Positions 1,749-48,870 of a stretch of DNA of 64,000 bases are shown here, piece after piece. The position numbers and the translations under genes are program-made. Origin of the DNA: a phage; assembly GCA_016390365.1 (NCBI GenBank), contig GCA_016390365.1_3043.1, one strand, 5' to 3'. The stretch's first letter is position 1; each line of letters opens with the position of its first letter. Under the pieces are notes generated by a model. It was given only the letters and a program-made list of their open reading frames with translations, ran no database searches and was not told the DNA's origin.

Positions 1749-2222
1749 ATGAAAACATATCAAGAATTTATCACTGAAGCAGCTATTAATTCTCAAATTA
1801 TTGCTGAATCTTTTACTGATCTTTTGAAATTTAAAAAAGGTCAAAAAATCACTGCTGTATTAGATGATGGTACAGAAGTTGAGATGGATGTACAGGGATA
1901 TAATTATGCAGTAGATGGAAAACTGTATAATAAATCTCATGCTAAATTTGATTCATTTGACGATTTTGTTAATACAGTTGAAGATGAAAAAACTCGTAGA
2001 TCCATTGCAACTGGCGACGCTAAGGTTCTTATGGCACACGGTCATGAACGTATCCGCGCCAAACAGAATAAAATGGGCGAAGATAATTTTGCATTAGTTG
2101 GTTATCAATCTGGTAAACAAACTTATGGTTATCAGCGTACTGCTACCATGTATAATAAAAATGGTAAAATCGCTTTCGTGAATAGCAAAGGCTCTATTCA
2201 GTACGTCAAATCATTCAAATAA
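1749..2222 (+). CDS. internal head protein, IPII/IPIII-like, with capsid targeting sequence
   Basis: N-terminus MKTYQEFITEA matches the T4 internal-protein CTS (MKTYQEFIAE, cleaved after E by prohead protease); body differs from T4 IPs. Confidence 0.7.
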   Translation: MKTYQEFITEAAINSQIIAESFTDLLKFKKGQKITAVLDDGTEVEMDVQGYNYAVDGKLYNKSHAKFDSFDDFVNTVEDEKTRRSIATGDAKVLMAHGHERIRAKQNKMGEDNFALVGYQSGKQTYGYQRTATMYNKNGKIAFVNSKGSIQYVKSFK

Positions 2223-7591: not shown

Positions 7592-7599
7592 TATAAATA
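7592..7599 (+). promoter_or_regulatory. late-promoter box TATAAATA
   Basis: exact TATAAATA about 25 nt upstream of ATG 7625. Confidence 0.4.
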
Positions 7600-45250: not shown

Positions 45251-45883
45251 ATGATTTATTATATGCACAAAAATCCACCGTTTAAATACGGTAAATTTCC
45301 TGATGCACAATGTTATAATATAACGCCTGATGAAAATAACCGTGGATATCTTATTGGCACAATTTTTGTAATTGTTAAAGATAACGAAATCGTTGCCTGG
45401 GCAGATTTTAAAGGTACAACATATGATGTTAATCCGGTGCCTTTCACATATTACAATTTAATGGATTTGGCATACGATTATAATTGGTTTAATCATGATA
45501 CTTTGGCTCATATTGAAGGTGTAGGATTTGATATTTCATATTCGGAATACACTTTAAGCCCTATGAGTCGAGCCCATAAAGAACCTGAATATTTTTCATT
45601 TAGGAAACGTGTAAACTTTAAACGCAGCACAGAGTATGTCGGTGGAATTTTTGTTAAAGATAATCGAATTATTCGTATTAATTATCCTTTGAGCGTTAGT
45701 CAAAAAGATATTGATGTTGATTTAGATTTCACTGAAAATAATATTAATAATATTGCTTCTGTGTATTTTGGTATCGATCACAAAATTGTAATATGTGGAT
45801 ATGAATTACCGTTTGAAGAACAGCCTAAAGTAAAAGTTTCTATTGACGATCAAATTTTTAATGCTTTTATGAATAAAGGTTAA
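45251..45883 (+). CDS. 61.2-like protein with internal repeats
   Basis: 210 aa; repeated VKDN-containing motifs; C-terminus IDDQIFNAFMNKG. Confidence 0.6.
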   Translation: MIYYMHKNPPFKYGKFPDAQCYNITPDENNRGYLIGTIFVIVKDNEIVAWADFKGTTYDVNPVPFTYYNLMDLAYDYNWFNHDTLAHIEGVGFDISYSEYTLSPMSRAHKEPEYFSFRKRVNFKRSTEYVGGIFVKDNRIIRINYPLSVSQKDIDVDLDFTENNINNIASVYFGIDHKIVICGYELPFEEQPKVKVSIDDQIFNAFMNKG

Positions 45884-45887
45884 TATG
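45839..45887 (+). repeat. direct repeat copy 1 (gene 3' end)
   Basis: 49 nt, about 4 mismatches to 46197..46245. Confidence 0.7.
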
Positions 45888-46241
45888 TATAGTTCTGAAT
45901 TTTCATATTTAAAAATGGAAAAAATTTCATACGATTTTATAGATGAAAAGGTTTATTACAGTTTCCATGAACCGCGTTTTAATAGTGAGGTTGGGTTTAT
46001 TGTAGTAAAAGACAATTTCATTTTAAAGATATATTCGGCATTAAAGGATTTTCACTACGAAAATATTAACCTAAAATTTGATAAAGAAAACGTTCGTAAT
46101 TGTGCAGTAACAATTACAGGAAATAAAGGTGCATGTGTTATGCTATCTGATGAAATTAATGATTTGCTAAATGATGCAGAAAATATTACTGCGCCATCTA
46201 TTGATGACCAAATTTTTAATGCTTTTATGAATAGAGGTTAA
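45885..46241 (+). CDS. hypothetical protein sharing C-terminal module with 61.2-like gene
   Basis: 118 aa ending IDDQIFNAFMNRG. Confidence 0.5.
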   Translation: MYSSEFSYLKMEKISYDFIDEKVYYSFHEPRFNSEVGFIVVKDNFILKIYSALKDFHYENINLKFDKENVRNCAVTITGNKGACVMLSDEINDLLNDAENITAPSIDDQIFNAFMNRG

Positions 46242-46245
46242 TATG
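46197..46245 (+). repeat. direct repeat copy 2 (gene 3' end)
   Basis: matches 45839..45887. Confidence 0.7.
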
Positions 46246-46407
46246 AAAACATATAAAGAATTTATCAAAGAAGATATGGTTGCTGGAGATTCAGGTGGTA
46301 ATCCTGAAAATATCTCTACTGGAACAGCGTCAGGCGCTGTAGTAAATAAAGGCCCTGAACAGATTTCTAAAAAGAAAAAAGAGGAATCTAAAGAAAAAGA
46401 AGAGTAA
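46243..46407 (+). CDS. hypothetical small protein with capsid-targeting-like N-terminus
   Basis: 54 aa MKTYKEFIKEDMVAGDSGG...; N-terminus resembles internal-protein CTS; Lys/Glu-rich tail; not in track. Confidence 0.4.
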   Translation: MKTYKEFIKEDMVAGDSGGNPENISTGTASGAVVNKGPEQISKKKKEESKEKEE

Positions 46408-48594: not shown

Positions 48595-48602
48595 TATAAA
48601 TA
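48595..48602 (+). promoter_or_regulatory. late-promoter box TATAAATA upstream of soc
   Basis: exact TATAAATA about 30 nt upstream of ATG 48634. Confidence 0.5.
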
Positions 48603-48633: not shown

Positions 48634-48870
48634 ATGGGTGGTTTCGTTAACATCAAGACCTTTACTCATCCAGCAGGTGAAGGCAAAGAAGTTAAAGGTA
48701 TGGAAGTTTCTGTAGCATTTGATGTATATTCAAATGAACACCGTATTGCAGATTCTCATTATCAAATCTTTCCGTCAGAAAAAGCAGCTTATTCTGATGT
48801 AGTTTCCGATGCAACAACTTGGAAAACTAAGAATGCTGCAATGTTTACGCCTACAGAAATAGGTGGTTAA
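48634..48870 (+). CDS. soc: small outer capsid protein Soc
   Basis: 78 aa GFVNIKTF...EVSVAFDVYS...HYQIFPSEKAAYS resembles recalled T4 Soc; late promoter upstream. Confidence 0.8.
   Translation: MGGFVNIKTFTHPAGEGKEVKGMEVSVAFDVYSNEHRIADSHYQIFPSEKAAYSDVVSDATTWKTKNAAMFTPTEIGG

Follow-up and report, generated by a model that had tools for sequence, protein, structure and literature searches.

The open reading frame at 1749–2222 is, by its sequence, Ip4 (IpIV), a named non-essential internal protein of T-even phages of the T2/K3 type. The best explanation of the gene as a whole, which is held here with moderate rather than high confidence, is that its product is packaged in the phage head, injected into the host and putatively directed against host restriction. 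The stretch of phage DNA that was analysed, hereafter the window, is 64,000 nucleotides long and is a Tequatrovirus (T-even) genome, the first 25 kb of which is ~96% identical to many such phages. The features that concern the protein itself are the following (predicted or observed cuts are marked ↓):

1749–2222, + strand: ip4 open reading frame, from the ATG to the stop codon at 2220–2222, 157 aa.
1749–1778, + strand: capsid-targeting sequence (CTS), residues 1–10, MKTYQEFITE, with the predicted prohead-protease cut ITE10↓A11, by match to the T4 CTS.
1779–1808, + strand: residues 11–20, with a second conserved [LIM]-x-E site, IAE20↓S, of which E20 is nearly invariant.
1779–2222, + strand: mature Ip4 body (residues 11–157) and stop codon, from PF24183, PHROG 3155 and the AF2 model.
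1722–1771, + strand: internal-protein leader, ribosome-binding site and CTS-coding block, by identity to the T4 ipII and ipIII leaders.

The reading frame opens with an ATG 5 nt beyond an AAGGA Shine-Dalgarno sequence (1739–1743), and the N-terminus of its product, MKTYQEFITEA, is identical in 10 of 11 residues to the MKTYQEFIAEA of T4 IPII and IPIII. The original prediction of a 157-residue protein with a T4-type CTS is borne out in this respect. Over its full length (ORF residues 1–157 on profile positions 1–158) the protein matches the Pfam family PF24183 (DUF7412) with 319.4 bits, against a cut-off of 27, and an E-value of 5.7e-96; it also matches PHROG 3155, annotated “internal virion protein”, over its full length (6e-102). 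The product is 100% identical to IpIV of T2 (YP_010073775), and the nucleotide sequence of ip4 is 100% identical in Shigella phage Sf21. A search of the BFVD structures returned Ip4 of phage K3 (UniProt Q38388), which is 99% identical to the ORF product, with TM-scores of 0.89 and 0.90. Existing records name the gene ipIV for T2 and PP01, and Ip4 for AR1, RB14, Shfl2 and others. Ip4 is already known: it has had a name since the 1990s, it defines Pfam and PHROG families, and it is annotated in T2 and in hundreds of genomes.

A divergent homologue of IPII or IPIII was considered and rejected, as Ip4 does not resemble IPI, IPII or IPIII past the first ~14–25 residues. In tblastn searches with T4 IPII and IPIII against L006, a locus identical to that of the window, no likeness past the CTS was found. 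Matches to other PHROGs of the internal-protein families reach only residues 1–14, 1–25 or 1–65, at E = 0.008 or weaker, and PF11634 (IPI_T4) is matched by the ORF neither in sequence nor in predicted fold. The PADLOC and NCBIfam family libraries returned nothing meaningful for Ip4, and a literature search found no paper on the function of Ip4 (IpIV, DUF7412).

The surroundings of the gene are best described by comparison with T4, for which three further features are needed:

1264–1322, + strand: e–denV intergenic region, the empty ipIII/ipII slot, from alignment with T4.
1323–1739, + strand: denV (endonuclease V), from ORF calling and the annotation of relatives.
2223–2375, + strand: spacer between ip4 and the vs.8 homologue, with the end of the insertion near 2242.

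The order of genes in the window is nudE, e, a gap of 59 bp, denV, ip4 and vs.8-, vs.7- and vs.6-like genes, leading on to tk, whereas in T4 it is nudE, e, ipIII, ipII, denV, vs.8; the internal-protein genes of T4 thus sit upstream of denV, and ip4 sits downstream of it. In direct alignment with T4, ip4 is a clean insertion of ~500 bp 3′ of denV. At the junction, the last codons of denV are replaced by the internal-protein leader, the protein ending in GKNIYI in the window and in GKAIYA in T4. Positions 1300–2400, which take in denV, ip4 and the beginning of the vs.8 homologue, are 99.5% identical to BW-1 and to the Yersinia phages PYps32T and PYps47T. In T2 (L080, NC_054931) there is no denV between e and ipIV, and ipIV therefore follows directly after e. 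The T2 RefSeq record also carries a 972-nt “nudE” CDS that overlaps all of e and looks like an annotation error.

Beyond the insertion, 2243–2370 agrees at ~97% identity with the opening ~125 nt of what is annotated in T4 as the vs.8 CDS (220 aa). In the window this vs.8-like stretch stops after 33 codons (ORF 2264–2365) and does not share the frame of the conserved vs.8 body, which starts MRTFLTGPY at 2376 (2376–2915, + strand, 179 aa; the PHROG 1488 profile has 177 aa). Either the N-terminal extension of vs.8 is over-annotated in T4, or vs.8 is split in the phage of the window. The segment 2243–2375 is more conserved than the adjacent denV. A structured RNA in the spacer (2223–2378) was considered and rejected, there being no Rfam match and a folding z of 0.03 relative to shuffled sequence.

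The CTS of Ip4 is a specific signal. When all six frames of the 64 kb were scanned for the CTS pattern, there were only two matches, both at the start of an ORF (ip4 and, at 46243, a 54-aa homologue of gene 61.1), and so specific a pattern would not be expected to occur by chance. M1, F7 and E10 are invariant or nearly so in the Ip4 family, and E10 is kept in 15–16 family members, including 34–36%-identical metagenomic relatives with variant CTSs. The (L/I)-x-E motif occurs twice, and only twice, in the precursor, as ITE10↓A and as IAE20↓S, and both glutamates are nearly invariant in the family.

The second match, the 61.1 homologue (46243–46407, + strand), lies just upstream of the primase gene 61 and consists of the start MKTYKEFIKE↓D followed by a 44-residue tail rich in Gly/Ser and Lys/Glu. 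The product of T4 gene 61.1 begins MKTFKEFIKED; the family is PHROG 1823, and in a T6 record it bears the label “putative head morphogenesis protein”. The 61.1 homologue may be an unrecognised small head-packaged peptide. Between spackle and 61.1 there are two other, adjacent ORFs on the + strand, 45251–45883 (210 aa) and 45885–46241 (118 aa), which have a common end motif, SIDDQIFNAFMN(K/R)G. The 118-aa ORF, in a region near dmd, is missing from T4, T6 and ~40% of relatives, and looks like either an accessory insertion or a copy of part of 61.2.

The likeness to the T4 internal-protein genes extends to the nucleotides around the start codon. Across 1722–1771, 49 of 50 nt are those of the T4 ipII leader and first codons, and across 1734–1771, 37 of 38 nt are identical to T4 ipIII. 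Since near-identical leader and CTS nucleotides stand in front of different bodies, the block looks like a portable recombination handle, behind which protein bodies would be exchanged. The position of ip4 is one of the hot spots for internal-protein genes, the e/denV region, the other being the 57B–tRNA region. Comparison with the internal-protein loci of related phages, which the original prediction had proposed, was made with IMG/VR loci in which denV is at least 76% identical (L006–L024, n = 19). CTS-ORF cassettes were found on both denV flanks in 18 of these 19 closest T4-like loci. At least nine unrelated bodies (86–198 aa) occur behind an MKTY(Q/N/K)EF(I/L)xE leader, with up to four cassettes in a locus, and homologues of IPIII are on the upstream or the downstream side of denV, depending on the phage.

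By inspection of translations, the IPII orthologue of the Klebsiella phage ValerieMcCarty03 (L082) is very close to T4 IPII. This closeness, far greater than that of neighbouring genes such as Ip4 (70% to the window), suggests that phages of different genera have recently exchanged the ipII cassette.

The claim that only one internal-protein gene is present here holds for the e/denV locus, where T4 has both ipIII and ipII. Because the ipI locus lies beyond the window, the claim says nothing about the phage as a whole. The ipI locus of the close relative BW-1 (L083, outside the window, beside 57B) contains a 77-aa CTS gene with the start MKTFKEFIAE↓S, and also an 85-aa CTS gene with a long leader in the style of IPI, MKTFKEFATKTTITE↓S. 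Counting these two further CTS genes of BW-1, the number of internal proteins packaged by such phages is therefore probably three or more.

Motifs upstream of the gene are consistent with both early and late expression:

1268–1273 (GTTTAC) and 1292–1299 (TAGTATAT), + strand: early-promoter-like element, from motif positions.
1707–1714, + strand: T4 late-promoter box TATAAATA, a consensus match inside the 3′ end of denV, 35 nt before the ATG.
735–742, 748–755, 1707–1714, 7592–7599 and 48595–48602, + strand: TATAAATA boxes, exact matches.

The e–denV spacer (1264–1322) contains a single early-promoter-like copy with flanking inverted repeats (GTTTAC...AATTGTGATAGTATATTCACA). In T4 (L002, 5357–6503) the GTTTAC...TAGTATAT element is repeated before ipIII, ipII and denV, and the window keeps one of these; the repeated element looks like a regulatory cassette and the site across which ipIII and ipII have come or gone. 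Judged by its motifs, it may be an early promoter driving denV and ip4. Early in infection, ip4 would then be transcribed by read-through from this promoter, which lies before denV; later in infection, the TATAAATA box at 1707 may act as the late promoter of ip4. Exact copies of TATAAATA occur five times in the 64 kb, all on the + strand, where 10.5 would be expected over both strands. Two are ahead of e, one is ahead of ip4, one follows tk, and one is ahead of a soc-like ORF of 78 aa (48634–48870). At the position equivalent to 1707 in the alignment, T4 has TACAAATA. Co-variation of the box with a downstream internal-protein gene was considered and rejected: the box is present in L016, which has no such gene, and is missing from L014, L015, L018 and L023, which do. 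As the box does not strictly co-vary with the gene, it is counted as supportive only.

Ip4 is very probably a packaged, CTS-processed internal protein. The original prediction had named presence in purified virions and cleavage at the CTS as the points to be checked, and both are seen in published mass spectrometry of virions for an orthologue that is 70% identical (PMC13119998). This orthologue, gp127/gp119 of the Klebsiella phages ValerieMcCarty03/04 (Jiaodavirus), is 159 aa long, is encoded right after lysozyme and matches Ip4 with E = 4e-85. Purified virions of each phage yielded 66 PSMs for it, on par with baseplate proteins (PMC13119998, Table 3, Data S2). The analysis covered all 66 rows for the orthologue in the ValerieMcCarty04 PSM table (PMC13119998). 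A semi-tryptic peptide, E.SRLATVGVMTESVGSNLLK.F (2 PSMs), starts exactly at residue 11 after Glu10, giving the new N-terminus E.SRLATVG..., and a further peptide, R.LATVGVMTESVGSNLLK.F, is represented by 1 PSM. None of the 66 PSMs from this phage corresponds to residues 3–12 (TYQEFLNESR). An N-terminus at residue 11 together with no PSMs from residues 3–12 is the pattern expected from a cut at the end of the CTS, and packaging and CTS processing are thereby supported, with the caveat that the orthologue belongs to phages of another genus, and that its preparation contained many non-structural proteins and commonly showed ragged semi-tryptic peptides. IAE20↓S was also considered as the mature N-terminus and was rejected; peptides of the orthologue span this site, which is therefore at most partly cut, and perhaps not at all.

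The same data bear on the suggestion that Ip4 is not packaged, its CTS-like start being a relic of cassette recombination and the protein acting inside the infected cell only, or not at all. This is very hard to credit. Leader and CTS do form a common nucleotide block, such that passive copying is possible, and gene 61.1 also has a CTS-like start though it is no recognised internal protein. However, the orthologue is found in purified virions with its N-terminus at residue 11, and the CTS residues are kept in 34–36%-identical relatives, beyond what passive copying of nucleotides can explain. Furthermore, dN is 0 across the CTS as well as the remainder of the gene.

The gene is widespread and strongly conserved. 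Essentially full-length ip4 is found in ~468 phage records, 326 of them at ≥90% nucleotide identity, the base for comparison being ~510 Tequatrovirus records that match the primase region. The other records are of T4-like phages of Klebsiella, Salmonella, Serratia, Raoultella and Citrobacter, with ~71–73% nucleotide and 61–71% protein identity. The T4-type ipIII and ipII pair, in contrast, is found in ~78 records. Among sequenced T-even phages ip4 is commoner than the ipII/ipIII pair of T4, and it is the commonest internal protein adjoining denV. The description of the protein as divergent has to be given up: Ip4 is a distinct named family, represented here by a protein with no amino acid difference from T2 IpIV, and the label was misled by comparison with T4 because the T4 arrangement is the minority one. 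Protein collections contain 16 clusters of Ip4 at 90% identity, including the 34–36%-identical metagenomic relatives, in which the CTS is MNFxxFLNE↓S; one metagenomic relative is on a T4-like contig, between the 57B/Acb1 and vs/rI regions.

Compared with T2 ipIV, 24 of 471 nt differ in ip4 and all 24 differences are synonymous (dS 0.30, dN 0, the CTS included). For the neighbouring lysozyme gene e, dN/dS relative to T2 is 0.027. The identity of Ip4 across phage genera (~70%) is as high as that of lysozyme e. NK, GYQ and GY are invariant motifs of the protein.

Mature Ip4 (residues 11–157) has a mass of 16.5 kDa, a pI of 9.14, 17 lysines and a net charge of +4; it is basic and Lys-rich, as are IPI*, IPII* and IPIII* (pI 9.0–9.65). 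A first AlphaFold model from a 13-sequence alignment was poor (pLDDT 54). After the addition of two 33–34%-identical relatives, the AF2 model reached a pLDDT of 86.7 and a pTM of 0.80, and consists of a low-confidence N-terminal helix (residues 4–25) and a compact alpha/beta body. A fold search of the PDB and BFVD gave no significant match except Ip4 itself (Q38388), and a sequence-profile search of the solved structures in the PDB gave weak matches only (E ≥ 0.06). The predicted fold of Ip4 is one without a known relative.

The composition of the mature protein raises the question of whether it is mainly structural, filling the head or neutralising the charge of the DNA, with no specific host target. 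Such a role would suit a basic, Lys-rich protein (pI 9.1, 17 Lys); lysines of the T4 internal proteins touch DNA phosphates in the head (PMC3012670), and the orthologue is abundant in virions (66 PSMs). It is nevertheless improbable. T4 and many of its relatives lack ip4 altogether, and a generic polycation needs neither the 53 invariant positions found among 61–82%-identical Ip4s of enterobacterial phages (17–20 once 33–36%-identical relatives are added), nor a confidently predicted compact fold, nor complete conservation of the protein. IPII and IPIII, moreover, were formerly considered structural and later proved to be specific inhibitors.

A specific activity against host defence is the reading developed here for Ip4, and it draws on precedents. 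IPI acts as an inhibitor of GmrSD from E. coli CT596, Ip2 of GmrSD-ECOR21 (BrxU) and Ip3 of GmrS1/GmrSD2 from ECOR17; Ip1–3 are thus directed against three GmrSD variants, with strict specificity in each case (PMC12373910; eLife 2022). Phage Bas37 encodes, at its ipI locus, a CTS protein (Bas37_0260) that inhibits McrBC (HIDEN-SEQ preprint, bioRxiv 10.1101/2025.11.20.689424), and this makes it plausible that the range of targets for Ip4 is wider than GmrSD. T-even internal proteins have been described as diverse defence proteins with the CTS alone in common (Rao and Black 2010; PMC3012670). Every internal protein characterised so far (Ip1, Ip2, Ip3, Bas37_0260) is anti-nuclease; therefore Ip4 is most likely an injected inhibitor of a modification-dependent nuclease. 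For the proposal, also by analogy, that Ip4 may inhibit a Type IV restriction enzyme, the chances appear evenly balanced. The original prediction's view of the protein as a candidate injected counter-defence effector agrees with the way in which the field reads orphan internal proteins (PMC3012670; PMC12373910), for which injection as anti-defence factors is the existing working hypothesis.

In the mechanism proposed, the 10-residue N-terminal CTS would direct the precursor to the prohead, into its scaffolding core, as suggested by its 10/11 identity with the experimentally defined CTS of T4. The prohead protease gp21 would then cut after Glu10 (ITE↓A), consistent with the residue-11 peptide in virions containing the 70%-identical orthologue. 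The basic, Lys-rich body of 16.5 kDa would stay in the head with the DNA and enter the cell along with it, by analogy with IPI–III; ejection with the DNA is inferred for Ip4 from these T4 proteins (PMC12373910). [quoted passage not shown] Its protection would be in place before any phage gene is expressed.

Ip4 may instead be packaged and injected in the same way and act on a target that is no Type IV enzyme. The target would then be either another first-response defence or some host factor that is conserved, for which a nuclease, the transcription machinery and a function of the membrane or periplasm are examples. This is a possible but doubtful alternative. In trials of ip4–10 against further GmrSD systems, Silas et al. 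obtained no reproducible inhibition, their ip4 being equated with Ip4 by the Repoila nomenclature, and T2, with an identical Ip4, is restricted by both GmrSD-ECOR21 and GmrSD-ECOR17 (PMC12373910). No common sequence past the CTS and no common predicted fold was found between Ip4 and Ip1–3, the fold being unrelated to that of IPI*. The protein is fully conserved relative to T2 at a dS of 0.30, and the ~70% identity in phages of Klebsiella, Salmonella and Serratia suggests a target conserved throughout the Enterobacterales; strong purifying selection and this degree of cross-genus identity fit a conserved target more obviously than they fit a fast arms race. Against this, all four of the functionally characterised CTS proteins inhibit Type IV restriction, the space of Type IV enzymes beyond the published trials is very large, and sequence and fold searches gave no clue to any alternative target. 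A frozen sequence, ~70% identity across genera, a fold without a relative and null GmrSD trials would together fit an effector with a conserved target, and Ip4 may tentatively be regarded as a widespread exception to the rule of “one Ip, one GmrSD variant”, acting on a conserved enterobacterial target, though this seems rather unlikely. If true, it would mean that Ip4 is aimed at a different class of immediate-early defence, or at a core host function.

Knowing the target of Ip4 would close a conspicuous hole in the present picture of Type IV restriction and anti-restriction, since no other internal protein is as common beside denV in sequenced T-even phages and T2 itself carries Ip4. By-products of the analysis, useful if unsurprising, are the processing site from public proteomics, the apparent leader/CTS recombination handle and the strictness of purifying selection.

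Among known systems, Bas37_0260 resembles Ip4 as a CTS-bearing orphan, and has been shown to act against Type IV restriction; it occupies a different locus, and the two are compared by description. T4 IPI/IPI* is, like Ip4, a CTS-directed, protease-processed and injected small basic protein, with I-T-E↓ as its cleavage motif too, but IPI differs in its 19-residue leader, its 57B–tRNA locus and its membership of PF11634. T4 IPII and IPIII have the same CTS as Ip4 (10 of 11 residues), a nearly identical leader, the same denV hot spot and a basic, Lys-rich composition, and the route of packaging, processing and injection is presumably the same; their bodies are unlike that of Ip4 after the CTS, and T2, which has Ip4, is not protected against the targets of Ip2 and Ip3. 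In Jiaodavirus phages ip4 follows e alongside ipII- and ipIII-like genes, unlike the arrangement in the window. The closest counterparts are Ip4 of K3, IpIV of T2 and Ip4 of RB14, AR1 and PP01, which are the same protein as that described here, in the same e/denV neighbourhood, with no difference of substance.
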